From Nitrospirota bacterium (GTDB taxonomy: Bacteria > Nitrospirota > Thermodesulfovibrionia > Thermodesulfovibrionales > UBA1546), in contig JACPZK010000032.1 of NCBI GenBank assembly GCA_016195565.1, positions 26,851 to 90,850 on the forward strand: a stretch of DNA of 64,000 nt, in the 5' to 3' direction. The position numbers and the translations under genes were made by a program. Shown piece by piece: positions 4,448-61,174 of the stretch; the stretch's first letter is position 1, and the number at the start of each line of letters is the position of its first letter. The notes under the pieces were generated by a model. The model saw only the letters and a program-made list of their open reading frames with translations. It was not told where the DNA came from and did no database searches.

Positions 4448-5887
4448 GTGGAAACAACAACGGTAGATACGAGTCAAAGAAAAAATCAGATATGGGCTTT
4501 TGTAATCACAGGTATCATGATCCTTATAAGCCTTATCTACTATAAGGTAAATGTATATTACATGTACCTTATAGCTTACATCTGGTTTGGATTTGCCTAC
4601 GGGATGATGCTTCAGTACGGAAGATTCTGTTTTGCCTCGGCTTCAAGAGACCTTTTCGCTGCAGGTGTCCCGAGAATGGCTGTCGGTATTCTGGTAGCGC
4701 TTGTATTTTTTAGCCTTATACAAGCAACTCTTGCATCAACCAACATGAGTACCTTTCATCCAGCTCCATTTGGGATACATACATTGATATCAGGTCTCAT
4801 ATTCGGTGTGGGAATGGTTCTTGCCGGAGGTTGTGCCTCTGGTTCTCTGTATAAGATCGGTGAAGGGAATGGCACGTCTTTCCTGGCAGCATTTTTCGGA
4901 CTTTGTATAGGACAGGCGATATTCGTTGATGTCAAATGGTTCAATTTCCTAATCCCTCAGAGCTGGGTAGTTTCAGCGGCAGCAAAAGGGCTGCCTCCCG
5001 ATAAAATGACCTCATCATTTGACACATATCTTGCAGGCTATGTCTGGAACCAGCCGACCCTTCAGTTGTCTCATACAAAGGCTATATCAGAAGCCTTACC
5101 TGGTGCGCTAAAGTATTTTGTCGGCGACTCCCTTTTGAACGCGTTAATTCCTGCAGTAATTCTTCTTCTCGTTATCTATACTGTCTGGAGCAGAAAAGGC
5201 TTTATGAAGAAAAGGGCCAAAGCAAAAGGCGGAGTAACCGGTTTCAGTGATGAGATTGCAGGCATCTGGAATATGATAACTGCATCCAAGAGGACAACCA
5301 TTATGGGTGTGATAATCGGCATCGTGGCAGGACTCCATATTTTTGTGATGAAGGGAATGCAGATTAAATTTGGTATTGCAAATTTCGGGGAGCTGTTAAC
5401 AAGGATGGGACATGCTGCCGATACCAGCATAAAGGGTACTGTTTTTGATCCTGGATACTGGTATATAACCAGTCAGGAAGGCCAGCTTGGCGGATGGATT
5501 CTCGATAAATTAGGCTGGAATATGCGCGATAATATATTCTTTGGTATCAATAACGGTCTTCCAGACCCATGGCGTAACCCTGCTCTCTGGATGTCTTTGG
5601 GTATCGTCTTTGGAGCTATGGTAATGGCACGGCTGAACAATGAATTCAAGTTTAAATTGCCGAAGGGCGAACTGATTGTATGGGGTCTTCTCGGCGGAAT
5701 ACTCATGGGTGTTGGCTCAAGGCCTGCATTGGGATGCAATATAGGGGCCTTTTTTATCAGAGTTGCCGGTGGAGATCCCAGTGGCTGGCTGTATGGCGCT
5801 GGCATGGTGGCAGGCGCCTTTGTCGGAGTTAAGTTCTTTAACTGGTGGTCAGAAAGAAAAATGGCCAAAGAAATGGAAGCATTTTGA
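4448..5887 (+). CDS. YeeE/YedE family sulfur-compound (thiosulfate) transporter
   Basis: GTG start 9 nt after GGAGGG; a polytopic membrane protein. Two hallmark Cys loops are present: AGGCASGSLYKIGEG and ALGCNIGAFF. A TusA-like gene lies immediately downstream, which is the canonical pairing. Confidence 0.75.
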   Translation: METTTVDTSQRKNQIWAFVITGIMILISLIYYKVNVYYMYLIAYIWFGFAYGMMLQYGRFCFASASRDLFAAGVPRMAVGILVALVFFSLIQATLASTNMSTFHPAPFGIHTLISGLIFGVGMVLAGGCASGSLYKIGEGNGTSFLAAFFGLCIGQAIFVDVKWFNFLIPQSWVVSAAAKGLPPDKMTSSFDTYLAGYVWNQPTLQLSHTKAISEALPGALKYFVGDSLLNALIPAVILLLVIYTVWSRKGFMKKRAKAKGGVTGFSDEIAGIWNMITASKRTTIMGVIIGIVAGLHIFVMKGMQIKFGIANFGELLTRMGHAADTSIKGTVFDPGYWYITSQEGQLGGWILDKLGWNMRDNIFFGINNGLPDPWRNPALWMSLGIVFGAMVMARLNNEFKFKLPKGELIVWGLLGGILMGVGSRPALGCNIGAFFIRVAGGDPSGWLYGAGMVAGAFVGVKFFNWWSERKMAKEMEAF

Positions 5888-8456: not shown

Positions 8457-9959
8457 ATGAAATGCGCATTGATTATTCCGGCATGGGTTCCTGAAGATAT
8501 CTTTTCTTCAAAAACAGCAAGCTCGCAGATTAACTACTGGCAGCCGTTGGGAACGCTTTACGTTGCCGCTGTTCTTCAGAAAAAAAGTCATGAAGTAAAG
8601 TTTTTTAACGGAGCATTCATGACACATGAAGAAATACTCGGCGGGGTAAGGAAGTTTATGCCTGAATTCATAGGGATTTATTCAACCACTTTTGGCTGGG
8701 AAAAGGCAAAAAAAACGGCTTCGGATATTAGGCGGATAACCCCACCCATTCTCCCCTTAAATAAGGAGAGGAGTAAGGAGGGGTTACCCCGCCCCTACAT
8801 TGTCGCCGGAGGGCCGTATCCCATTGCTTTGCAGGAGCGCTGCCTTGAGGATGCAGGAGAATCTATTGATGCAATAGTCACAGGAGAGGGCGAGTTTACG
8901 AGTCTTGAAATAATTGAAAGGCTTCAGGCAGACAGGAGTCTTGAAGGCGTTCTCGGAGTTGTTTACAGAGGTGGTGAAAAGATTATAAAAAACCCTCCGC
9001 GGCCGTTAATTGAAGACCTTGATTCGCTGCCGTTTCCTGCAAGGGAGCTCTTAGGGGATATAAACCTGTATATTCCTCCGCCTGCCACATACAGAAGAAA
9101 GCCTGTTGCTGTTCTGATAACCTCAAGAGGGTGTAACAGAAGGTGCATTTATTGTTTCCAGATAGACAAGGAGCGCAAGACAGGCGTCAGATACAGAAGC
9201 GTTGGAAATGTTATGAAAGAGATTGAACACTGCATTAAGCAGGGGTTCAGGGAGATAAAGTTTATAGATGACACTCTGGCTGCTGACTACGAAAGGGCTA
9301 TGAAGCTGGCTGAAGAGATAAAACGCAGCGGACTTGATTTCACATGGTTTGCATCCGCATGCGTTAATCAGGTGGATAAGCCTCTGCTTAAGGCATTCAA
9401 GGAAGCTGGCTGCTGGGCCATACTCTTTGGCGCAGAAAGCGGCGTCCAGAAGAATCTTAATACAATCAGAAAAGGAATAACGCTGGAGCAGACACGGAAT
9501 GCCGTAAAATGGGCAAAAGAAGCAGGGATTAAGGTCAGCGCTCCTTTTATGTTCGGCATTCCCGGAGAGACTTTTGAGGAGGGGCTCCAGACTATTGAAT
9601 TTGCGATAGAGCTTAATCCTGACATAGCTAATTTCCATGCAATAACTCCGTTTCCGGGCACATACCTTTATGACAACCTTGAAAAATACGGGACAATGTC
9701 TGATGAGCTTTCAGATTTCACATATCAGGGAGCAGCATTTATCCCCCATACAATGACAAGGGAGGAGATTCTAAAACTCAGGCAGACAGCATTCAGGAGA
9801 TTTTATTCCAGGCCCTTCTTTATTCTAAAGAAACTTTTTGAATTAAGGAATCTGAACGATCTTCTCGCTGCGCTGAGAAGCCTAAAAAGCTTGTTCTATC
9901 TATGGACAAAAATCGGCTTGTTCAGCAGGGCAAAAGATAAGAGAGGCTGGTCTGAGTAG
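8457..9959 (+). CDS. B12-binding-domain radical SAM protein (class B)
   Basis: The start lies 2 nt after the upstream stop. It has an N-terminal cobalamin-binding-like domain and the cluster motif SRGCNRRCIYC (CX3CX2C). Size is 500 aa. Confidence 0.8.
   Translation: MKCALIIPAWVPEDIFSSKTASSQINYWQPLGTLYVAAVLQKKSHEVKFFNGAFMTHEEILGGVRKFMPEFIGIYSTTFGWEKAKKTASDIRRITPPILPLNKERSKEGLPRPYIVAGGPYPIALQERCLEDAGESIDAIVTGEGEFTSLEIIERLQADRSLEGVLGVVYRGGEKIIKNPPRPLIEDLDSLPFPARELLGDINLYIPPPATYRRKPVAVLITSRGCNRRCIYCFQIDKERKTGVRYRSVGNVMKEIEHCIKQGFREIKFIDDTLAADYERAMKLAEEIKRSGLDFTWFASACVNQVDKPLLKAFKEAGCWAILFGAESGVQKNLNTIRKGITLEQTRNAVKWAKEAGIKVSAPFMFGIPGETFEEGLQTIEFAIELNPDIANFHAITPFPGTYLYDNLEKYGTMSDELSDFTYQGAAFIPHTMTREEILKLRQTAFRRFYSRPFFILKKLFELRNLNDLLAALRSLKSLFYLWTKIGLFSRAKDKRGWSE
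8737..8786. repeat. imperfect palindromic insertion inside the radical SAM CDS
   Basis: TAACCCC...CTCCCCTTA-AA-TAAGGAGAG...GGGGTTA. It encodes ITPPILPLNKERSKEGLP in frame. Confidence 0.5.
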
Positions 9960-9996: not shown

Positions 9997-10078
9997 TAGA
10001 TTGCTTCAGAATAAGGCTCTTCGCAATGACAAATTACGAAAGCTTATTTTGTCATTGCGAGCGGAGCGAAGCAATCTC
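9997..10078. repeat. MITE-like nested palindrome (GTCATTGCGAG family)
   Basis: AGATTGCTTC...CTCTTCGCAATGACA-loop-TGTCATTGCGAGCGGAGCGAAGCAATCT. Both arm pairs are reverse complements. Confidence 0.7.
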
Positions 10079-10148: not shown

Positions 10149-10877
10149 ATGATAATTCTGAAGACATTGGCGATTTTATTCTTAATCTGCGGTGTTGCAG
10201 AAGCCGGCATATACAAGTATGTCGGAGAAGACGGAGTTGTTCTTTACACAGATGTCCCGCAGGGTAAAAAGCCAGCGAAGGTTATAAAAACAAAAGAGAA
10301 GAACAATAAGGCGGTTTCATCTAATAGTAAACCTGTCAATGTTGCATATGCCTCAACTACACATAACGAGAGTTACCACCCCATAATTAACCAAAAAGCA
10401 AAAGAGAATGAGGTAGACCCTTTTCTTGTCAGCGCTGTTATAAAAGCGGAATCAAACGGCAATCCTAATGCTGTTTCAAGAAAGGGAGCAATGGGGCTTA
10501 TGCAGTTGATGCCGGGAACCGCAAATGACCTTCAGGTGAAAAATCCGTTTGACCCGGAAGAAAACATAGACGGAGGAACAAGATACCTCAGATACCTCAT
10601 CGAAAGATTTAACGGCAACTTAACCCTTGCGCTTGCAGCGTATAATGCAGGGCCAAAGACTGTTGAAAAGCACGGCTCTGTTCCTCCCATTGCAGAGACA
10701 AAACAGTATGTAAGAAAAGTGCTTGCCCTGTATAAGGGAAAAACTGACATCTCTTTTTCAGGTTCGAATAAGATGAAAAAGTCGGAGCCTATCTATAAGA
10801 TAATAATGGACGATGGAACAGTCCTCTTCACAAATTTCCCTCTTTACAATAACAAAGCCAATTCAGTCAGGTTTTAG
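10149..10877 (+). CDS. lytic transglycosylase (SLT domain) with N-terminal DUF4124-like region
   Basis: A signal peptide ([10 protein letters not shown]), [17 protein letters not shown], and the SLT catalytic region [26 protein letters not shown] ... AAYNAGP. Confidence 0.8.
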
Positions 10878-42324: not shown

Positions 42325-44511
42325 ATGGTAAATAAACAAACTCTCCTTTCATTTTTCAGAGAAAAAACAAAAAAGCCTCTTAGTTTTAAGGATATGGTTA
42401 ATCTCATGGGATTAAGCCGTTCCGAAGCCCACGCATTAAAAAAGGTGCTCAGACGAATGCTTCAGGACGGCGATATCGTGCTCACGAGAAAAGGCCTTTA
42501 TGTCCCTGTAAGTGATGTTGATCTGACGACAGGTTATTTTGAGGCGCACAAGGAGGGTTACGGTTTTGTAATTACGGAAAAGCCGGGAGAACGTGATATA
42601 TTCATACCTGCGCGAGCAACCTCCGGAGCAATGGACAATGACAGGGTTGTTGCGAGGATTGAGAACCGGCAAAAGCGGGACGGAACAATAATAAGGATAC
42701 TTGAAAGGGCTCACGTCAAAGTAGCAGGCAGGCTTGAAATCGAAAATGCCGTATCTTATGTGAGGCCCAAAAACAAATCCATTGCATTTGACCTTTATGT
42801 CTCGCCTAATGACAGGGGCAGCGCAAGGAATGGCGATACTGTTGTTGCTGAGATTCTTACGTATCCTGCAGACAGAAAGCCTCCTTCGGGAAGAATTGTA
42901 AAAGTAATAGAAAAGCCAGAAGACCCTGCATCCGAGGTTGAGGCTATCATAGATGAATTCAGTATACCGAGGAGATTTCCGAGGGATGTTGCCGAAGAGG
43001 CAAAGAGAATTTGGCGTATCTCTACTGTCATTCCGAGCGAAGCGAAGGAATCTCGTTTGAGATTGCTTCGCCCCGACTTTATCGGGACTCGCAATGACAA
43101 TGTGCAGATGCCTTACGACATCGCTGAAGAGAAAAGAAAAGATTTAAGAGAGCTTCCTACGGTAACAATTGACGGTGAACGCGCAAAGGATTTTGATGAC
43201 GCAGTTTCCATTAAACTTACAGAACACGGTTATAAGCTCTGGGTGCATATAGCTGATGTCGGATATTATGTTCCATGGGATTCGGATATTGACCTTGAGG
43301 CCAGGAAGAGAGGCACAAGCACATATTTCCCGGACAGGGTGATTCCAATGCTACCGAATGAACTGTCCGAGGATCTGTGCAGCCTGAGGCCTGAGGTGGA
43401 AAGGCTTGCATTCACGGCAGAGATGGACTTTGGCAGGCATGGCGAAAAACTCAATGCAAAATTTTATCCGAGCCTGATAAAGAGCAACGAGAGGATGACC
43501 TATACATCTGTAAGAAAGATTCTTATTGATAATGACAAACACGAGCGCAAAAGATATGACTACCTTTTAAGTGATTTTGAACTTATGGCTGAACTCTGCG
43601 GCGTCCTGAGAAAAAAACGGCTTGACAGGGGAAGCCTTGATTTCGACCTTCCGGAGCCTGAAGTCCTGCTTGATATGCAGGGCCGGCCGGAGGCAATAGT
43701 AAAGGCTGAGAGAAATTTTGCGCATATAATTATTGAAGAGTTTATGGTTGCGGCAAATGAGGCTGTTGCGGAATATCTTACGGAACTCGAAACTCCGACC
43801 CTTTACAGGATACACGAAGAGCCGGACACGCAAAAGATGGAAGGGATTCTAAGATATGTAAAACCTTTGCGCGGCAAGGTACATGGCGCTCGTTACGAGC
43901 CGAAAAACTTCTCTGCGCTGCTCAGAGAAGTAAAAGGCCGGCCGGAGGAAGAAATGGTGAATTATATGGTGTTGAGAAGCCTTAAGCAGGCAAGGTATTC
44001 TCCCTTGAACGCCGGGCATTTCGGCCTTGCGTCAGGACATTATACACATTTCACATCTCCGATAAGGCGCTATCCGGACCTCGTGGTACACAGGATATTA
44101 CGAGAAGTTTTGCATAAGAAGCGCATATCAGAAAGAAGAAAGCAGGAACTGGAGACAATGCTGCCTGATATTGCATTCAACTCTTCAAGGACGGAGCGCC
44201 TTTCCGGCGAGGCTGAGAATGCGGTTCTTAATGCTATGAGAGTGTGGTTTATGAAAGATAAGGTAGGAGATGAGTTTGAAGGAAGGGTTGTCAATGTCAC
44301 GCCTTACGGACTGAAGATTAGGCTAAAGGATTTTTATGTTGAAGGTTTTCTCCATGTCTCATATATGACGGATGATTTTTACGAATTCAACGAGCGCACT
44401 ATGACCCTGTTTGGCAAAAATAAGAAACGCTCCTTCACGATAGGAAAGGAATTAAAAGTGAAGGTTGACAGGGTAGATATGGAAGAGAGGGCGATAATCT
44501 TCGGGGTATAG
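42325..44511 (+). CDS. rnr: ribonuclease R
   Basis: 728 aa. N-terminal HTH/CSD region, RNB domain (TIDGERAKDFDDA, YFPDRVIPMLP, HFGLA...YTHFTSPIRRYPDL) and a C-terminal S1 domain. Confidence 0.9.
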   Translation: MVNKQTLLSFFREKTKKPLSFKDMVNLMGLSRSEAHALKKVLRRMLQDGDIVLTRKGLYVPVSDVDLTTGYFEAHKEGYGFVITEKPGERDIFIPARATSGAMDNDRVVARIENRQKRDGTIIRILERAHVKVAGRLEIENAVSYVRPKNKSIAFDLYVSPNDRGSARNGDTVVAEILTYPADRKPPSGRIVKVIEKPEDPASEVEAIIDEFSIPRRFPRDVAEEAKRIWRISTVIPSEAKESRLRLLRPDFIGTRNDNVQMPYDIAEEKRKDLRELPTVTIDGERAKDFDDAVSIKLTEHGYKLWVHIADVGYYVPWDSDIDLEARKRGTSTYFPDRVIPMLPNELSEDLCSLRPEVERLAFTAEMDFGRHGEKLNAKFYPSLIKSNERMTYTSVRKILIDNDKHERKRYDYLLSDFELMAELCGVLRKKRLDRGSLDFDLPEPEVLLDMQGRPEAIVKAERNFAHIIIEEFMVAANEAVAEYLTELETPTLYRIHEEPDTQKMEGILRYVKPLRGKVHGARYEPKNFSALLREVKGRPEEEMVNYMVLRSLKQARYSPLNAGHFGLASGHYTHFTSPIRRYPDLVVHRILREVLHKKRISERRKQELETMLPDIAFNSSRTERLSGEAENAVLNAMRVWFMKDKVGDEFEGRVVNVTPYGLKIRLKDFYVEGFLHVSYMTDDFYEFNERTMTLFGKNKKRSFTIGKELKVKVDRVDMEERAIIFGV
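43026..43099. repeat. MITE-like palindrome (GTCATT...AATGACA family) inserted in frame in rnr
   Basis: TGTCATTCCGAGCGAAGCGAAGGAATCTC-GTT-TGAGATTGCTTCGCCCCGACTTTATCGGGACTCGCAATGACA. Translated as TVIPSEAKESRLRLLRPDFIGTRNDN, just upstream of the RNB domain. Confidence 0.75.
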
Positions 44512-49975: not shown

Positions 49976-50068
49976 TGTCATTGCGAGGGACAAAGTCCCG
50001 AAGCAATCTTAAGACAGATTCGGAACAGGCTCTCATAGACAGATTGCCGCGCTGCGCTCGCAATGACA
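49976..50068. repeat. MITE-like nested palindrome (GTCATTGCGAG family)
   Basis: TGTCATTGCGAGGGACAAAGTCCCGAAGCAATCT...AGATTGCCGCGCTGCGCTCGCAATGACA. Confidence 0.75.
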
Positions 50069-52958: not shown

Positions 52959-53027
52959 GTCATTGCGAGGGACGAAGTCCCGAAGTAATCTCAAAGGAAA
53001 GATTGCCGCGCTTCGCTCGCAATGACA
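52959..53027. repeat. MITE-like nested palindrome (GTCATTGCGAG family)
   Basis: GTCATTGCGAGGGACGAAGTCCCGAAGTAATCTC...AGATTGCCGCGCTTCGCTCGCAATGACA. Confidence 0.75.
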
Positions 53028-54924: not shown

Positions 54925-55659
54925 ATGTTACGCAGAACTGAAGGCATTGTCTTAAAAACCATCCCTTTCGGAGAAGCAGACCTCATAGTAACATTTTTAA
55001 CTTATGATTTCGGCCTTATAAAGGCATTCGCCAAAAGCCCGCGAAAGATAAAGAGCAGGTTCGGAAGCAGCCTTGAACCTCTTACATACTCAAAGATATC
55101 ATTCTGGGGAAAGGAAGATGCTAATCTCCCCCGCCTGACGCAGTCAGATATAATCCTGCCGTTTAAATCCATGAGAGAGAGGCTGGATTGTTTTTTGAAA
55201 GCCTCAGAGATAATCGAGCTTACCGTCAATATGCTTCCGGAGCATGAAGCAAATAAAAAAATATTCACGCTTCTTCTGGATATACTGAAGACAATGGAAA
55301 AAGACTGCGCTGCGCTGCACACAGTAATCATGTATAAGGTGAAGTTCCTTGACCTTGCGGGTTATGCCCCGAGGCTTGACGGCTGCGCAAGATGCGGAAA
55401 ATCAGGATTCAGTTTTTATGTCTCGCACGGTTCCATCCTCTGTGAGAATTGCGCTACAGGTGTGGATTCGCATGTGAAGCTCTCACAGGGGTCTATAAGG
55501 CTTTATGAGAGCCTGAGAAAGTGGGACAATTCACTGGCAGGAAGGATAAAACCGTCAGGGAATCTCTTTGCAGAACTTTCGGGAATGATAAACGACCACA
55601 TAAGACACACCCTCTCAAAGCCGCTGAAATCAGAGGCCTTCTATAATCTCACAAAATAA
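54925..55659 (+). CDS. recO: DNA repair protein RecO
   Basis: TEGIVLKTIPFGEADLIVTFLT... (OB fold) and the zinc motif CARCGK...CENC. Confidence 0.85.
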   Translation: MLRRTEGIVLKTIPFGEADLIVTFLTYDFGLIKAFAKSPRKIKSRFGSSLEPLTYSKISFWGKEDANLPRLTQSDIILPFKSMRERLDCFLKASEIIELTVNMLPEHEANKKIFTLLLDILKTMEKDCAALHTVIMYKVKFLDLAGYAPRLDGCARCGKSGFSFYVSHGSILCENCATGVDSHVKLSQGSIRLYESLRKWDNSLAGRIKPSGNLFAELSGMINDHIRHTLSKPLKSEAFYNLTK

Positions 55660-55703
55660 TATCAAAAAGAGTATTTTTAATCCTATGAAGGCAGATGAAA
55701 TAT

Positions 55704-55732
55704 TTGCTTTTTTACATGAAAGTTATTAATAT
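55704..55732 (+). promoter_or_regulatory. sigma70-type promoter candidate for the small-ORF / TM effector / cyclase operon
   Basis: TTGCTT (55704-55709), a 17-nt spacer, then TAATAT (55727-55732), followed by the GAGGAGG RBS at 55747-55753. Confidence 0.45.
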
Positions 55733-55757
55733 TTCACAAGTTTCTGAGGAGGTGGTT

Positions 55758-55928
55758 TTGGCGAAGAAGGCTCCAAAGAAGAATAATAATGTCGTAGACT
55801 TGACTCTGCGAGATGTAGCGGCAGCACTTCCCTCTGTATTTTTCAAATCATGCAAAGAAAAACGCATCGCCGTCAAAGTCATCGACCACGGGGGGAATGA
55901 GGTGATGGTGGTGAGGGAGATATTTTGA
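55758..55928 (+). CDS. small hypothetical protein (56 aa), first gene of the Pycsar-like operon
   Basis: I prefer the TTG at 55758 (GTG at 55752 is also possible) because the ATGs at 55695 and 55716 lie upstream of or inside the predicted promoter. The stop is 1 nt before the next ATG. The C-terminus KRIAVKVIDHGGNEVMVVREIF vaguely recalls C-termini of some DNA methyltransferases (from memory only). Confidence 0.35.
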   Translation: MAKKAPKKNNNVVDLTLRDVAAALPSVFFKSCKEKRIAVKVIDHGGNEVMVVREIF

Positions 55929-55929
55929 A

Positions 55930-56478
55930 ATGGATGACAAAACCAGAATAGAAAATGTTTTAAAGAAAATATCAAGATTTGATTTCTATATAAATTCCAC
56001 AAACACTAAGAGTTCTATTATCATAGCTTGGAATGGTACTGTCATTGGGACAATATTTCTAAAATATCATCAGGTTACCAGTTTATATGTTATTCATTTG
56101 TGGTCTTGCTATCTTTCAAACGTCTTGCTTGTGTTAATAGGAATAGCGAGTATATTTTCCATAGCTTATGTCTTTGATGTTATTTATCCCTTCTTAAAAG
56201 AAAAAGATAACATCAAGAAAGATGAAGATAATGGTAATGGCTCTGAATCGCTTTTTTTCTTCGGTTCTATAGCAAAACTATCCTGCAAAAAATACATTGA
56301 AAAAGAAAAAAAGACAGAGGAAAAAGATGTATTGGAAGATGTTTTAGAGCAATCTCATATATTGGCAAAAGGACTATTTGACAAAATGAATAACTTAAGA
56401 TTAAGCATCAATGCTATTAAGTTTCAGCTTTTCTTAATTTGTCTTCTAATAATCCTAAAAGGAGTAATTTTCTACTAA
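55930..56478 (+). CDS. Pycsar effector-like transmembrane protein (PycTM-like)
   Basis: 182 aa with helices at ~25-45, ~55-85 and ~160-180. ESLFFFGSIAKLSCKKYI...DVLEQSHILAKGLFDKMNNLRLSINAIKFQLF resembles the Pycsar-effector (DUF5706-type) pattern as I recall it. It lies adjacent to a class III cyclase. Confidence 0.5.
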   Translation: MDDKTRIENVLKKISRFDFYINSTNTKSSIIIAWNGTVIGTIFLKYHQVTSLYVIHLWSCYLSNVLLVLIGIASIFSIAYVFDVIYPFLKEKDNIKKDEDNGNGSESLFFFGSIAKLSCKKYIEKEKKTEEKDVLEDVLEQSHILAKGLFDKMNNLRLSINAIKFQLFLICLLIILKGVIFY

Positions 56479-56481
56479 CAA

Positions 56482-57276
56482 ATGAACAATAGAAAACCAT
56501 TCTCACTAAAATGGGTGCCAGGTTTTTACAAGACCATTACCAATAGATTAAAAATGCAAAAAGTCTTATTACGCGTTCGGATAAGAAATATTACAGATGG
56601 TCTTACTATGCCTGAGATTACAAATGTACCTATTGGAAGTGGGAAACGAATGGAGGCTGCGATTTTATTTTTTGACCTTAAAGACTTTACATCAATTACA
56701 TCTAAGCTCAAAAATGAACAGGTTCTTTATATGCTCAATACCATAATTCCACAGATGATGCACGTCGTAAAACGCTGGAGAGGTGAGATTGAAAAAAACA
56801 CTGGCGATGGAATTATGGCAATTATTGGCACCGAAACGAGAGACAGCTTTTTAATTGCAAGAGATGCGATAGAAACAGCTATGGCAATGCGATATATAAT
56901 GTTGAATGCTATTCAAGCCAACTTCATTGAGAAAGGTATTCCTTTTCTTAATTTTCGGATCGGCATAGATATGGGTGAAGTGTTAATTTCAAGGATAGGC
57001 ATTGACGGTACTAATCACCTTGTTGTTATCGGTGATGCAGCTAATCGAGCTTCTAAACTACAGGGATTTGCGTCATCAAATGGTATTGTGCTTGGAGAAA
57101 ATATGTACAGCAATCTTCATTCCTTGCTTCAAGGATATTGCAATGAAGAAAAACACGAAGACTGGAAATGGTCATACACTCAGCCAGAAAAGCCTTATAG
57201 GTTTTTCTCGTTCAATCTGGATTTTGCGGAGCCTTCTGAGTGGGTCAAAATAATAGCCCGATTGAAATACTTATAG
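56482..57276 (+). CDS. class III nucleotidyl cyclase (PycC-like)
   Basis: AILFFDLKDFTSIT (metal Asp), NTGDGIMAIIG (second Asp) and RIGIDMGEVLISRIGIDGTNHLVVIGDAANRASKLQ are the core motifs of adenylate/guanylate-cyclase-fold enzymes. It is a stand-alone 264-aa protein with no sensor domain. Confidence 0.75.
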   Translation: MNNRKPFSLKWVPGFYKTITNRLKMQKVLLRVRIRNITDGLTMPEITNVPIGSGKRMEAAILFFDLKDFTSITSKLKNEQVLYMLNTIIPQMMHVVKRWRGEIEKNTGDGIMAIIGTETRDSFLIARDAIETAMAMRYIMLNAIQANFIEKGIPFLNFRIGIDMGEVLISRIGIDGTNHLVVIGDAANRASKLQGFASSNGIVLGENMYSNLHSLLQGYCNEEKHEDWKWSYTQPEKPYRFFSFNLDFAEPSEWVKIIARLKYL

Positions 57277-57293
57277 GAAAAAACAGAATATGT

Positions 57294-57312
57294 CCCTTGC
57301 TGTTGATGAACC
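57294..57312 (+). repeat. left copy of the direct repeat bracketing mntA-hepT
   Basis: CCCTTGCTGTTGATGAACC; the core CTTGCNGTTGATGAAC recurs at 58073-58091. Confidence 0.7.
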
Positions 57313-57381
57313 TATCCTGAAATCTCGGCTCGGATATTGGTAAGATATAGACAGAGAATTTGAAGGAGGCGAAGGCGGAAA

Positions 57382-57723
57382 ATGAAAAAACAATCCAAAA
57401 GAACAACTGTGCTGACGCGTGAGCAAGTAATTTCAATCCTGAAAAAAGAACTGCCCTATCTGAAAGACAAATACGGCGTTGAAAGAATTGTCCTGTACGG
57501 CTCGTTCGCAAAAGACAGTCAGAAGAAAAAGAGCGATATAGATATCCTTGTAGACCTCCATAAAACTCTGGGATTGGAGTTCGTTGCACTCGCCGACACG
57601 CTTGAAGAAAAATTGGGGAGAAAAGTTGACGTTGCAACGTTTGAGCATTTCAAGAGGAGTTTTCATAATCCAAGGTATAGACATATTGCAGAAGATATTA
57701 AAAAGAGCATGATTTATGTCTAA
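57382..57723 (+). CDS. mntA: nucleotidyltransferase-domain antitoxin (MntA-type)
   Basis: ERIVLYGSFAKDSQKKKSDIDILVDL is the GS-x(n)-DxD minimal nucleotidyltransferase motif. It overlaps the HEPN gene by 8 nt. Confidence 0.8.
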   Translation: MKKQSKRTTVLTREQVISILKKELPYLKDKYGVERIVLYGSFAKDSQKKKSDIDILVDLHKTLGLEFVALADTLEEKLGRKVDVATFEHFKRSFHNPRYRHIAEDIKKSMIYV

Positions 57724-58066
57724 GAAACGAAGAGACAAGGATTTTCTCGGAGATATTAATGAGGCGATAAATCTGATCAGTCTCTACACGAAAGGGCTGA
57801 CCTATCGGAAGTTTCTTGAGGACAGGAAGGCGCAGGATGCTGTAGTTCGCAATCTTGAGGTAATTGGAGAGGCATCGAAAAACATAGCAGCAGCGTTCAA
57901 GGCTAAATATCCTGATGTCCCATGGAAGAAGGTCGCCGGATTAAGGGATAAACTCATTCATTTCTATTTTGGCATCGATTATAAGATTATCTGGAGCATC
58001 GTAAAAAAAGAACTCCCAAAGTTGCGTAAGCAGGTAAAAGAGATTTTAAAGCAGGAAGCCGATTAG
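57716..58066 (+). CDS. hepT: HEPN-domain (DUF86) toxin, HepT-type
   Basis: AVVRNLEVIGEASKNI and RDKLIHFYFGIDYKIIW (the R-x4-H HEPN motif). Confidence 0.8.
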   Translation: MSKKRRDKDFLGDINEAINLISLYTKGLTYRKFLEDRKAQDAVVRNLEVIGEASKNIAAAFKAKYPDVPWKKVAGLRDKLIHFYFGIDYKIIWSIVKKELPKLRKQVKEILKQEAD

Positions 58067-58072
58067 CCATAC

Positions 58073-58091
58073 CGCTTGCAGTTGATGAACG
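58073..58091 (+). repeat. right copy of the direct repeat bracketing mntA-hepT
   Basis: CGCTTGCAGTTGATGAACG; 15/16 identical to the core of the left copy. Confidence 0.7.
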
Positions 58092-58135
58092 CTCATAAAC
58101 GATTATTTGTTTGTATCTGAAGCTGCTAAAAATAT

Positions 58136-61018
58136 TTACATCTCCACCAGCAGCCCCCTGTGTGTGAAAAGCAGATAGGCTTTTGATTTCAGCGAAAGGA
58201 TTTTGCCTGCCGCTTCCTTGTAGATATCCATCTGAAACCTGTATTTTTCTGAGAGTAAAGGCATATCTTCATCTTTTACTGGAAATGTCTTGTAGTCATA
58301 AATTACGGCAGTATTGTTTTCAATGATTATCCTGTCAATTCTTCCCCTGAAAACAGCACTGCCTTTCTGAAGGATAAACGGCAGTTCCGCAAATGAATTT
58401 CCACGGGGCAGAATTATATTATTTAGGTGTCCGTTTACTTTCAGCGACTGAAAATCAGTAAGCACAATACCGCTGAGTTTCTGAATATCCTCGTCAGAAA
58501 GGAATTCATTTTTCAGCAGTGAGAGAGTTCTTTCATTTAAGCCTTCCGGCGTCAGAATTCCCTTTGAAAGCTCTTCAAACAGCCTGTGAAAAATCCTGCC
58601 GAGAATAACCCATTCTTCGCCGTGAGTTATCCGTATGTCCAAGTCCTCTGTAACGTCTCTCCATTTTACATCTGTCGTAAAAGTCAGCGGTTCTGTGAAT
58701 ACATGCTCCTGTGCAGTAAATCTTGGAGCATGAAGATCAGCACGAGAGGGAAGGGAAGCAGAATAAAGTTTCTCTATCTCCGCCTCGGTAAGTATTTCAA
58801 AGAAATCAGTTTTGCTGTTTATTTTTCTATTCTTTAGTACGTCAAAATTTTCTGTGAGATACGCAAGCCTTCCTGCAGGAGATTTCTCTTTGTTCAGAAC
58901 TCCGAGCATGCACAGAAAATCCCTGGCCCTTGTAACAGCCACGTAAAAAAGGCGTTTCCCTTCCTCAAGTTCTTTTTCCTTTCTTCGTGCGAACCCTGCG
59001 ATATTTTTCCTCTTTGCAGAATCTTCTTCATAAGCAATTGAGATACTGCTGCCTTCCTCGTCAATGACAATTGAACTGCTCCTCGGGGTATCCGGCTCGT
59101 CAAGAGACGGGAGGAATACCATAGGGAACTGAAGCCCTTTTGCGGCATGTATTGTCATTATTTTTACTGCGTTCATGCCCTCGGTGTTTATATTTGCCTT
59201 TGGCTCATCCCCATCCCTTGCCTTGATGAGTTTCTCCCGTATCTCAAGCACTGAAAACCCTGCTGATTCGTAGGACTCAATGAGCTTTATAAATTTCTTT
59301 ATGTTAGCCTGCCTCTGTTTTTCCCTGTAGTGTTTCCAGCCTTCTGTCTCTGTGAGCGCCTCTTCAAGTATTATTGCAAGCGGCGTGCTTCTTGATTTCT
59401 CTATCCAGCTATGAAGCATCCTGAATATCCCTGAGAATTCCAGTTCAGCCTGAAGTTTATTTATGAGAGGCTGGTTGTTTTCTCTACGAGTCGGTAGGCC
59501 AGCAATCAGATTTAAGAGGGTTTCATAATCAATTTCGAACAGCGGGCTTCTCAGCACGCAGAAAAGGCTGTAGTCATCATGAGGGTCAATAATTAAAGAA
59601 AGGAGTTCCCGCAGCAAAGCAACCTCCGGTTCGTCATAGAACCCGATGCCTTTCACCACAATAAAAGGTATATGCTCTTTTCTCAGTGCGCTCTCAAATA
59701 ATGTGAGGTGAGTCCTCTTTCTTAAAAGCACTGCCATGTCTCCGAAGGCGCAGGGCCTTTTCTTGTCTCCGTCGGATATTTCATATATGCCTGCAAGGGA
59801 TTTGATTCTTTTTGCCAAGGCAGACGCTTCTTTTGTGCGGCTTTTCTTGGTGTTGTCTCCTGCTTCTGCAAGCGCAAGCTCGACCCTTCCTTCTCCTTTC
59901 CTTGTTGCCTCAAAATGCGCGTATCTGGTCTGCCATGTCTCATGAAGGGCAGGAGGCATGAGTTTCTCAAAGAGGGCGTTTGCAAAGTTTATGATTGCAG
60001 GCAGGCTCCTGAAATTTTCTTTTGCTTCTTCAAAGTGATATTCATTGCCGAGCCATTCGGAAAGCCTGCTTTTTGCTTCTTCAAACACGCCTGCGTTTGC
60101 TCCCCTGAAGAGATAGATTGACTGCTTATCGTCTCCGACAAGGAATATCGTAGGAGTTTTCCCTCTGCTTCTCTTTGATCCAAGGCCCGAGCGCCATTCT
60201 TCTGTGAGTTTGTCTATAATCTGCCACTGGATTGAATTTGTATCCTGAAACTCATCAACGAGTATATGGTCTGTATGCTCGTCAAACGAATAGAGGATGT
60301 TTTGCCATTCAGGGTGGCTGGCAAGCGCCTCGTATGTCATGATCTCAAGGTCGTCAAAATCAAGGAGATGGCGTTCAAGTTTTTTGTTTTTATATTGTTC
60401 AAGGCATTGTGAGTAGAGTTTAAGAATTCTTTTTTCTTCTGAAAATCCCCCCTCGCCCCCCTTTGACAAAGGGGGGATGGGGGGATTTTTCTCATTTTCT
60501 GTGGACCTCAGCAGCAGTTCCGACACGGGTCTTTTTGCATACAGCGTATTGAGGATTGAAAATACCTTATCCCAGCCCTTAATCCCCCTGTCTTTCATCA
60601 TGTCAAAGAACAGCGCAGGCTTGTCTTTTTCTTCCATCACGCATTCATAAACGGCCTCTGACCAGAGGAGCGACGCCTCAAACTCATCCATGACATCAAG
60701 CGAAGGGTCTACTCCGAGTTCTATCGAAAAACGCTTTAGCAGTTTAAGGCAGAATGCGTGGATTGTTGATATTCTCATCAGCGGCATCTTTTCTTTAATC
60801 ATGAGGAACAGGCCGGGATTTTCCCTTTCAAGGATGTTAAAGATTCTTTCCTTCATCTCCGCCGCTGCCTTTTCCGTGAAGGTGATGCAGAGGATTTTTT
60901 CTATCTCAGAGCCGTCAAGGAGAAGGCTTATATACCGCCTTGCCAGCTTTTCTGTTTTGCCGGAGCCTGCAGGCGAGGAGATGATTACGCTTTTTTGGGT
61001 GTCAAGATAGCTGTTCAT
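58136..61018 (-). CDS. UvrD/AddA-family helicase with C-terminal PD-(D/E)XK nuclease domain
   Basis: I prefer the ATG at 61018 (MNSYLDTQKSVIISSPAGSGKT, Walker A). Motifs ILVDEFQDTN, IMTIHAAKGLQFP, YVAVTRAR and the C-terminal GRIDRIIIENNTAVIYDYKT. No addB-like partner gene is adjacent. Confidence 0.8.
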   Translation of the reverse strand: MNSYLDTQKSVIISSPAGSGKTEKLARRYISLLLDGSEIEKILCITFTEKAAAEMKERIFNILERENPGLFLMIKEKMPLMRISTIHAFCLKLLKRFSIELGVDPSLDVMDEFEASLLWSEAVYECVMEEKDKPALFFDMMKDRGIKGWDKVFSILNTLYAKRPVSELLLRSTENEKNPPIPPLSKGGEGGFSEEKRILKLYSQCLEQYKNKKLERHLLDFDDLEIMTYEALASHPEWQNILYSFDEHTDHILVDEFQDTNSIQWQIIDKLTEEWRSGLGSKRSRGKTPTIFLVGDDKQSIYLFRGANAGVFEEAKSRLSEWLGNEYHFEEAKENFRSLPAIINFANALFEKLMPPALHETWQTRYAHFEATRKGEGRVELALAEAGDNTKKSRTKEASALAKRIKSLAGIYEISDGDKKRPCAFGDMAVLLRKRTHLTLFESALRKEHIPFIVVKGIGFYDEPEVALLRELLSLIIDPHDDYSLFCVLRSPLFEIDYETLLNLIAGLPTRRENNQPLINKLQAELEFSGIFRMLHSWIEKSRSTPLAIILEEALTETEGWKHYREKQRQANIKKFIKLIESYESAGFSVLEIREKLIKARDGDEPKANINTEGMNAVKIMTIHAAKGLQFPMVFLPSLDEPDTPRSSSIVIDEEGSSISIAYEEDSAKRKNIAGFARRKEKELEEGKRLFYVAVTRARDFLCMLGVLNKEKSPAGRLAYLTENFDVLKNRKINSKTDFFEILTEAEIEKLYSASLPSRADLHAPRFTAQEHVFTEPLTFTTDVKWRDVTEDLDIRITHGEEWVILGRIFHRLFEELSKGILTPEGLNERTLSLLKNEFLSDEDIQKLSGIVLTDFQSLKVNGHLNNIILPRGNSFAELPFILQKGSAVFRGRIDRIIIENNTAVIYDYKTFPVKDEDMPLLSEKYRFQMDIYKEAAGKILSLKSKAYLLFTHRGLLVEM
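60442..60490. repeat. G/C-rich palindromic insertion in frame in the helicase CDS
   Basis: AAAATCCCCCCTCGCCCCCCTTTGACAAAGGGGGGATGGGGGGATTTTT. The coding strand gives NPPIPPLSKGGEGGFS. Confidence 0.75.
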
Positions 61019-61174
61019 GTTTGTCCTCAGAATAACACAGGGAGATTTTTGCTTGCAATGCCATTCATGTAAAAAGGATTTGCACACTTCGGGTTTTGGT
61101 GGTATTCTCAGGTAAGGAGGATGAATGAAACAGGGCTGGAGAAATTCTGAAAGATATAACTGTCGGAGGCTTTT

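Follow-up and report, generated by a model that had tools for sequence, protein, structure and literature searches.

The locus considered here raises the question of whether a Pycsar-type antiphage pair has acquired a third component. Within a 64,000-nucleotide stretch of contig JACPZK010000032.1 from a Nitrospirota bacterium (assembly GCA_016195565.1; the whole 64-kb stretch is termed 'the window' below), a gene for a small membrane protein (pycTM) and a gene for a nucleotide cyclase (pycC) closely follow a 56-codon open reading frame (ORF), and an initial annotation had proposed that the three might form one defence unit. Our analysis points to a canonical two-gene Pycsar cassette, pycTM-pycC, in a variable island between recO and an AddA-like gene, with the small ORF being the relic of mod, the methyltransferase gene of a type III restriction-modification (R-M) system; we put the probability of this reading at roughly 0.85. 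Feature coordinates are collected in Table 1, and retrieved loci and proteins of relatives are cited by L and P numbers, respectively.

The description of the pair itself held up. The ORFs, lengths and spacings first listed (56, 182 and 264 residues, separated by 1 and 3 nt) all match the ORF map and the sequence, and the motifs quoted at the time (FFDLKDFT, TGDGIMAI, RIGIDMGEV, IGDAANRASKLQ and SLFFFGSIA...) were all found. The 264-residue protein, from which a sensor domain is absent, matched the PADLOC PycC profile PDLC02367 at 6.7e-32 (108.7 bits) and 13 PycC models in all, and matched Pfam Guanylate_cyc at 1.1e-17 (64.7 bits). Among nine aligned members of the clade, the metal-binding aspartates D65 (FFDLKDFT) and D109 (TGDG) and the transition-state positions N188 and K192 (AANRASKLQ) are invariant, and they align to the catalytic sites of CyaB and EaPycC, so that the catalytic core is predicted to be intact. 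The pycC gene is under purifying selection (non-synonymous diversity pN 0.23 versus synonymous diversity pS about 0.78).

The 182-residue protein encoded 3 nt 5' of the cyclase was likewise identified as a Pycsar effector by profile. It matched the PADLOC '2TM effector' model PDLC00700 (9.3e-36), PycTM models (4e-29 for PDLC02364 and 1.5e-23 for another) and the Pfam family PF18967 PycTM (33.1 bits, above the gathering cut-off of 27.2). An AlphaFold 2 (AF2) model of the protein (pLDDT 80) shows an all-helical fold in which three helices are long and residues 89-105 form a disordered loop, and strong hydropathy peaks fall at residues 52-89 and 156-182. We predict two to three transmembrane (TM) helices and no canonical cyclic nucleotide-binding domain (CNBD), for which 182 residues leave no room. 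The AF2 model had no structural match in the PDB at E<=0.001, and a phmmer search of the PDB likewise returned none. Comparison with relatives indicated purifying selection (dN/dS 0.09-0.19). A phage or plasmid origin was considered and rejected, as no relative of PycTM was present among IMG/VR viral contigs or PLSDB plasmids.

Gene order was tested on the loci retrieved for relatives in the PycTM clade of the window. The effector gene came first in every relative whose context was recovered (about eight independent loci, from several phyla). In L047/48, L049, L056 and L057, PycTM is 70-99% identical to that of the window, and gene lengths and the 3-nt spacing are kept; the same order was found in L050 (Thermodesulfobacteriota), L041 (Geobacter), L042 (Blastocatellia) and L046 (a deltaproteobacterium), and all these loci were confirmed by PADLOC as PycTM plus PycC. 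The only cyclase-first loci recovered, L044 and L045, share 27% identity and belong to the E2-associated, three-gene 'Pycsar-like-4' type, with PycC, an E2-like protein (PADLOC E2, 7e-15) and PycTM encoded in that order (L044 3609-5501). Effector-first order, which the initial annotation had correctly observed and set apart from described systems, is thus a conserved trait of the clade and no anomaly of this locus. The genes upstream of pycTM-pycC vary, being DUF6804 in L049, GIY-YIG in L056, GmrSD in L057, Mod in L047/48 and further different genes in L050, L041, L042 and L046; the pair is a conserved, mobile two-gene unit. One orphan effector was also seen, in an Elusimicrobia metagenome-assembled genome (L043 4878-5528), where a PycTM homologue (PADLOC 2e-28) has no cyclase detectable within 5 kb.

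Two-gene Pycsar systems composed of PycC and PycTM were reportedly described by Tal et al. in 2021. The pair in the window is like them in its sensor-less class III cyclase, its adjacent small PF18967 membrane effector, its form as a discrete two-gene unit in a defence island and its presumed abortive-infection logic. It differs in that its effector gene comes first, in its uncultivated Nitrospirota host, and in a cyclase that could be assigned to no published clade (A-E) and lacks the Zn ribbon of clade D.

The small ORF has a different ancestry. Its reading frame spans 55695..55928 and would encode 77 residues if counted from the first ATG; the TTG at 55758, five nt 3' of a GAGGAGG Shine-Dalgarno (SD) sequence (55746-55752), is a biologically plausible start for the 56-residue form, and the stop codon lies 1 nt before the pycTM ATG at 55930. 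The protein has no match in Pfam, PADLOC or NCBIfam, and an E2 gene of the Pycsar-like-4 kind was found only at L044/L045. About 45 database relatives were retrieved, and their alignment separates a part belonging to the N-terminus of Mod from a part belonging to its C-terminal tail. The N part (LAKKAPKKNN...) runs on in other contigs as '...DVDAYKHKKETSKNAVPVGLASYD...YDPHLDPQLVW...' and is identical at 30 of 33 residues to P0017 of L001, which continues as a Mod N-terminus. Proteins containing '...FCISQAFFPDSSAWDKLKRALKASIDEDKFELLTST...' end with the C part (KEKRIAVKVIDHRGNEVMVVRE), in which 24 of 37 residues are identical to the end of a 754-aa Mod encoded at L047. A tblastn search of the window with that Mod found the tail alone (55833-55922, 80% over 30 aa, E=6e-8). 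The L047/L048 Mod holds both parts, its N-terminal 93 aa being split off by a frameshift, and its 754-aa body matches PADLOC MTase_III (PDLC03632, 2.1e-180) and Pfam N6_N4_Mtase (5e-33). Since both ends match one Mod protein, the small ORF is an internally deleted mod, from which about 800 codons have been removed in frame and in which the first ~14 codons are joined to the last ~40. It has the start, the last ~40 residues, the leader and the ribosome-binding site of a type III Mod and differs from one in lacking the ~800-residue catalytic and target-recognition body, including the N6_N4_Mtase domain; neither a Mod body nor a partner Res was found anywhere in the 64-kb window.

The loci of close relatives show the cassette beside mod in several states. 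L047/L048 have mod (754 aa) first, then pycTM, which starts 2 nt past the mod stop, then pycC and finally DUF1016/YhcG and ResIII genes that are both truncated, and homology between L047 and the window (70.8% over 55842-57234) takes in the last 29 mod codons. The mod 3' end lies directly 5' of pycTM in all close copies of the cassette: at full length in L047; in the window, as 42 codons joined to the mod start; as 42 frameshifted codons in L057; as ~20 codons with the N part missing in L049, which is 98.6% identical to the window across the cassette and otherwise has an unrelated context (TPR, DUF6804); and, in L056, as ~15 codons that have lost their stop. In L057 (45-2700) a 160-aa Mod N-terminus is followed by GmrSD, a type IV restriction gene (PADLOC Orf5/HEC-06, 4e-211) that sits in the place of the mod middle, and then by the frameshifted tail, pycTM and pycC. 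The only invariant piece of the tail is its last ~45 nt, which include GAGGGAG, the SD sequence of pycTM located in the 3' end of the small ORF. Because pycTM has its ribosome-binding site within the end of mod, this piece travels with the cassette. No mod tail was found in the distant effector-first Pycsar loci (L050, L041, L042 and L046). The R-M operon of L047 (1808-7536), as well as that of L048, is itself decaying (mod frameshifted after ~93 codons, YhcG reduced to 154 aa and ResIII to 416 aa), a structure that is identical in two sequencing runs.

The small ORF also occurs apart from Pycsar. A 93%-identical copy lies 3' of recO in L004-L007, where it is followed by genes for RnlA-like, RNase HII, TPR and Schlafen/AlbA_2 proteins and where no Pycsar is found, and a related small ORF in L061-63 precedes an SMC_N/AAA_21 ATPase system. 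Its presence before unrelated cassettes, together with its variability beside Pycsar, connects it with the site and the cassette's history, not with Pycsar function. These observations bear directly on the three-component unit first proposed, in which the 56-aa protein would be a regulator, chaperone or antitoxin-like partner of PycTM or PycC. That idea draws on an intact ORF with a strong SD sequence that stops 1 nt before pycTM, and on a pN/pS of about 0.3 among ORFs of this kind, with mostly synonymous changes in their tail. It is opposed by the loss of the N part in L049, the 15 stopless tail codons of L056 and the frameshift of L057, by the absence of the ORF from the four distant loci, by the near-identical ORF before unrelated genes, and by the derivation of both halves from a methyltransferase whose catalytic body is gone. 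The conservation check that had been suggested for the small ORF therefore went against it, since beside the same Pycsar cassette elsewhere it is absent, shortened or frameshifted. We rejected the three-component interpretation as very improbable.

A broader alternative is that such fusions (mini-Mods) are maintained small proteins or obligatory translated leaders, forming a general, portable platform for the expression and coupling of any defence cassette located 3' of it, and one that is not specific to Pycsar. In-frame Mod N-C fusions with at least five junctions were found in Planctomycetes (L053-55 and L058-60) and another lineage (L051/52), the proteins being P0021-P0043; examples are L053 1591-1851, L058 369-626 and L051 6001-6264. 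Across several phyla each lies at the left-hand end of an array of variable cassettes, with toxin-antitoxin (TA) pairs following the mini-Mods of other lineages, and the next gene begins 1-2 nt past the stop in the window, L047 and L053. The mini-Mod ORFs have pN/pS values of 0.28-0.40, and variation in the tail is almost confined to third codon positions across seven lineages. L053 and L058 have a common junction and flanking ADH gene and differ in the genes downstream (458 aa versus 280 aa); between them the mini-Mod pN/pS is 0.33, as against 0.04 for the neighbouring ADH, and the 21-codon tail has five synonymous and no non-synonymous changes. However, the tail is lost or frameshifted in many recO-adjacent variants (P0007, P0013, P0015, P0018, P0031 and P0045), the search was seeded with an in-frame fusion and so carries an ascertainment bias, the substitution counts are small, and gene conversion from full-length Mods or divergence that preceded the deletion could mimic constraint. 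A genuine function for the mini-Mod seems to us unlikely, if still deserving of some credence.

We also compared the cyclase, by sequence, with solved structures. A profile of the clade scored about 1e-19 against canonical adenylate cyclases (CyaB, 3r5g, and 2w01 being among the closest) and 1.3e-18 against the cytidylate cyclase EaPycC (8jsf), which gave the longest coverage (residues 62-248, including the C-terminal extension); scores for BcPycC (7r65), PaPycC (6yii) and AnPycC (8jsz) were 9e-15, 6e-12 and 7e-4. The identities of 8jsf, 7r65, 6yii and 8jsz as Pycsar cyclases are taken from PMC11224242. As canonical and Pycsar structures score similarly, it is the PADLOC profiles and the linkage to PycTM that support the Pycsar assignment. 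One could ask whether the pair is a housekeeping cAMP or cGMP signalling module, a view to which the closeness of the adenylate cyclase structures and the retention of the canonical purine-specifying lysine (K105) would lend themselves. The higher score of the PycC profiles than of the generic cyclase family, the strict linkage of the cyclase to a PF18967 effector, its lack of a sensor domain, the presence or absence of the module among relatives at least 92% identical, amid TA and defence cassettes, and its low GC content all argue against this, and we consider a housekeeping role the most improbable of the explanations discussed here.

The residues that bear on nucleotide specificity are mixed. 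The 'ASKLQ' of the window cyclase resembles 'ACKMQ' of EaPycC, unlike the canonical 'ASRxE', and F63 corresponds to F100 of EaPycC, whereas K105 and T107 stand in place of its R142 and Q144. In view of this mixture and of the existence of Pucsar, a purine-using sister branch, we call no single product, in keeping with the earlier caution that it could not be judged by eye; it is most likely cUMP or cCMP, with cGMP or cAMP less likely. Membership of a purine (cGMP) 'Pucsar'-type or an ATP-using Pycsar-like branch, alike in architecture and different in signal, would be suggested by the lysine and threonine just mentioned and by the lack of both the clade D Zn ribbon and F109, and the same TM effector family occurs in sister clades whose substrate is GTP or is predicted to be ATP (bioRxiv 10.64898/2026.08.12.744502). 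Pucsar and Pycsar-like-4 systems resemble the window in their cyclase superfamily and their 3TM effector of the 'pJV1-spdB3' type (same source). Chakravarti et al. (bioRxiv 10.64898/2026.08.12.744502) describe a hexameric, pore-like assembly of EcPucTM and its CNBD; the 182-aa effector of the window is too short to hold that domain, and the E2-like gene that separates cyclase and effector in Pycsar-like-4 is missing. The best PADLOC profiles, moreover, are PycC models, and the best Pycsar structural match is EaPycC, with which the window cyclase shares the C-terminal extension and a 'K-[LM]-Q' motif. A different signal of this kind is a minority possibility, though one of some weight. Amino acid identity to the proteins of L056, L057 and L047 is 61-62% for the cyclase of the window (and likewise for that of L049) and 70-82% for the adjacent PycTM; the much greater divergence of the cyclase suggests either faster evolution or a recombinant cyclase gene.

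Under the two-gene reading with a mod relic, an anti-phage role for the pair would follow from its family and its context (a defence and TA island, presence/absence variation and a dip in GC content). Upon infection the stand-alone cyclase would, by analogy with its family, make a 3',5'-cyclic mononucleotide; PycTM would bind this signal and oligomerise or open in the membrane, leading to growth arrest or death of the infected cell and aborting the infection. The cyclase trigger and the membrane mechanism of PycTM are drawn from PMC11224242 and bioRxiv 10.64898/2026.08.12.744502. On the same reading the Pycsar lineage was originally inserted directly 3' of mod, giving the order mod-pycTM-pycC-yhcG-res that is seen in L047/L048, and the captured mod promoter and leader may now drive transcription of the operon. 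The relic would be translated from the mod start, and its stop, 1 nt before the pycTM ATG, may couple it to pycTM initiation; in the window it would at most be a cis-acting expression platform. Such an arrangement is preserved by an in-frame deletion, which could account for the persistence of the relic as an ORF.

Several points weigh against this reading. The promoter that the initial annotation placed before the small ORF exists as hexamers with the stated spacing (TTGCTT at 55704-55709, a 17-nt spacer and TAATAT at 55727-55732), but its -35 hexamer matches at only 3 of 6 positions, was not listed by the consensus scan and amounts to a weak resemblance to consensus. Promoter-like sites are not enriched in 55500-58200 (13, versus 8.2 +/- 2.9 in shuffled sequences), and no terminator-like site was found in the same interval. 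In the sequence comparison with solved structures, canonical adenylate cyclases (1e-19) do as well as Pycsar cyclases (1e-18 to 6e-12), and the low pN/pS values and synonymous tail changes of the mini-Mods hint at constraint on the relic at the peptide level. Transcription, translation, cyclic-nucleotide synthesis and phage resistance are all predictions from sequence.

A joint and more far-reaching reading takes this Pycsar lineage to have evolved as an accessory within a type III R-M operon and the mini-Mod to be actively maintained as a portable leader or small protein, one that would drive and couple the expression of any defence cassette recombining in behind it. If the first part were true, translation coupled to mod would place restriction and abortive infection under one promoter; if the second were true, the ends of mod would be a docking and expression platform for the exchange of defence cassettes in several phyla. 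The PrrC anticodon nuclease, which lies within the type Ic hsd locus of EcoprrI, is a defence gene nested in an R-M operon. L047/L048 resemble that arrangement in that Pycsar sits between modification and restriction genes and begins 2 nt past the mod stop, and differ from it in that the R-M genes of L047 are decaying (mod frameshifted, yhcG and res truncated) and only a scar is left in the window; the association of Mod and Res with Pycsar at these two loci is, in addition, read from gene order. A literature search on Pycsar nested in type III R-M found nothing relevant. We regard this joint reading as rather doubtful.

As a defence system the locus adds little, being one more Pycsar pair, from an uncultivated groundwater Nitrospirota lineage. 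On the two-gene reading its value would lie in illustrating the way a defence island comes to be assembled: having entered an R-M operon, the cassette survived the loss of that operon and retained its promoter, its ribosome-binding site and the last codons of mod, so as to mimic a three-gene system to a reader or gene caller. Relic ORFs of this kind can inflate the number of 'new accessory components' counted in surveys of defence systems, and the recO/addA hot spot with its recurrent mini-Mod fusions offers usable material for a study of cassette turnover.

We compared 33 recO loci from metagenomes with the window. Relatives with an empty site and relatives with a filled one alike have a recO gene that is 92-97% identical, and in the empty state only 12-40 bp separate it from the AddA-like gene (L011, 92% identical, 10728-10745; L019, 10707-10738; L035, 10708-10747; versus 55646-58137 in the window). 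These empty-site relatives define 55660-58135 of the window as a 2.5-kb insertion hot spot. They also keep the AddA-like gene, which must therefore be a core flank gene outside the island; the nuclease-helicase neighbour pointed out at the start is indeed a UvrD-helicase and PD-(D/E)XK protein, but does not contribute to the defence context as was supposed. The MntA/HepT neighbour was recognised correctly, its two genes forming an overlapping (8 nt) pair of nucleotidyltransferase and HEPN/HepT type, and the defence-island setting is supported by presence/absence variation among close relatives and by a GC dip that extends over pycTM and the 5' portion of pycC (0.30-0.33, versus 0.42-0.47 in the flanks). 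All island-bearing relatives keep about 75 nt past recO, promoter-like hexamers included, which are absent from empty-site relatives, and homology to the window then breaks off at a nested series of points (Table 1). Among relatives of ~90% identity the site is empty or is filled by TA genes only, Pycsar, an RnlA-like/RNase HII/TPR/Schlafen set, SMC-like genes or R-M-like genes.

Table 1. Features of the recO/AddA-like island in the window, and positions at which homology with recO-linked relatives breaks off.
Feature	Position in window	Strand	Remarks
recO	54925..55659	+	Conserved left flank, outside island; Pfam RecO_N 4e-22, RecO_C 4e-24
Former mod leader (island left end)	55660..55757	+	Promoter-like hexamers and SD GAGGAGG
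Small ORF (mini-Mod)	55758..55928	+	56 aa from TTG 55758; TGA stop 55926-55928
pycTM	55930..56478	+	182 aa; Pycsar membrane effector
pycC	56482..57276	+	264 aa; stand-alone class III nucleotide cyclase; starts 3 nt after pycTM
Repeated ~55-80-nt leader element	57289..57369	+	Right boundary of Pycsar cassette, start of MntA/HepT cassette
mntA	57382-57723	+	Pfam NTP_transf_2 4e-14; separate toxin-antitoxin cassette of island
hepT	57716-58066	+	Pfam HepT-like 1.6e-31; separate toxin-antitoxin cassette of island
AddA/UvrD-like helicase-nuclease	58136..61087	-	983 aa; convergent; Pfam UvrD-helicase 2e-54, UvrD_C, PDDEXK_1; conserved right flank
Homology breakpoint	55731		L012, L014-18 (TA cassette only)
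Homology breakpoint	55736		L008
Homology breakpoint	55749		L013
Homology breakpoint	55776		L010
Homology breakpoint	55792		L001-3; mod N-terminus runs on as far as Bro-N, YhcG and another MTase_III/AAA_15/REase_III set, which interrupt it
Homology breakpoint	55912		L004-7

The right boundary of the Pycsar cassette is formed by an element of ~55-80 nt, in which a -10-like TATAGA/TATAAT and an SD sequence come after an invariant core (CTGAAATCNCGGCTCGGATATT). It is present in a single copy in the 64-kb window and recurs before successive TA and other cassettes in L004 (11594-11644, 13148-13198, 13907-13967 and 14698-14795), L005, L006, L038 (2994-3044 and 3805-3857) and L049 (3130-3180); in L049, two TA cassettes that the window lacks are inserted between copies of the element, ahead of mntA/hepT. 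The element is probably a shared cassette promoter or operator that offers homology for the gain and loss of cassettes. Boundaries of the integron/attC kind were rejected, since neither strand of the element gave a significant hairpin (57277-57381 and a copy from L004 folded no better than shuffled sequences, z -0.33 to +0.91) and the islands examined revealed no integrase. A search for structured RNA in Rfam at E<=1 gave only a chance match (hveRNA, 26 bits versus a gathering score of 90).

Other rearrangements were noted at or near the same site. In L008 the recO 3' end and the promoter-like leader occur twice, as a 257-bp direct duplication (5387-5643 and 8523-8776) on either side of a 2.9-kb insert with Mod N-fragments, HepT-like and Bro-N-like genes, and an AlbA_2/Schlafen-like gene comes after the second copy. 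In L004, hepT has been almost wholly and cleanly deleted (window 57736-58092 versus L004 15143-15144), leaving an orphan antitoxin gene, mntA, that is 94.6% identical to that of the window. Finally, a palindromic, REP/MITE-like intergenic repeat with termini GTCATTGCGAG...CTCGCAATGAC (8 terminal matches versus 0.94 expected) has copies in the window at 10020-10061, 43027-43098, 49977-50067 and 52959-53026, and a further copy is located in the island of L014/L016/L018, just past the recO leader.

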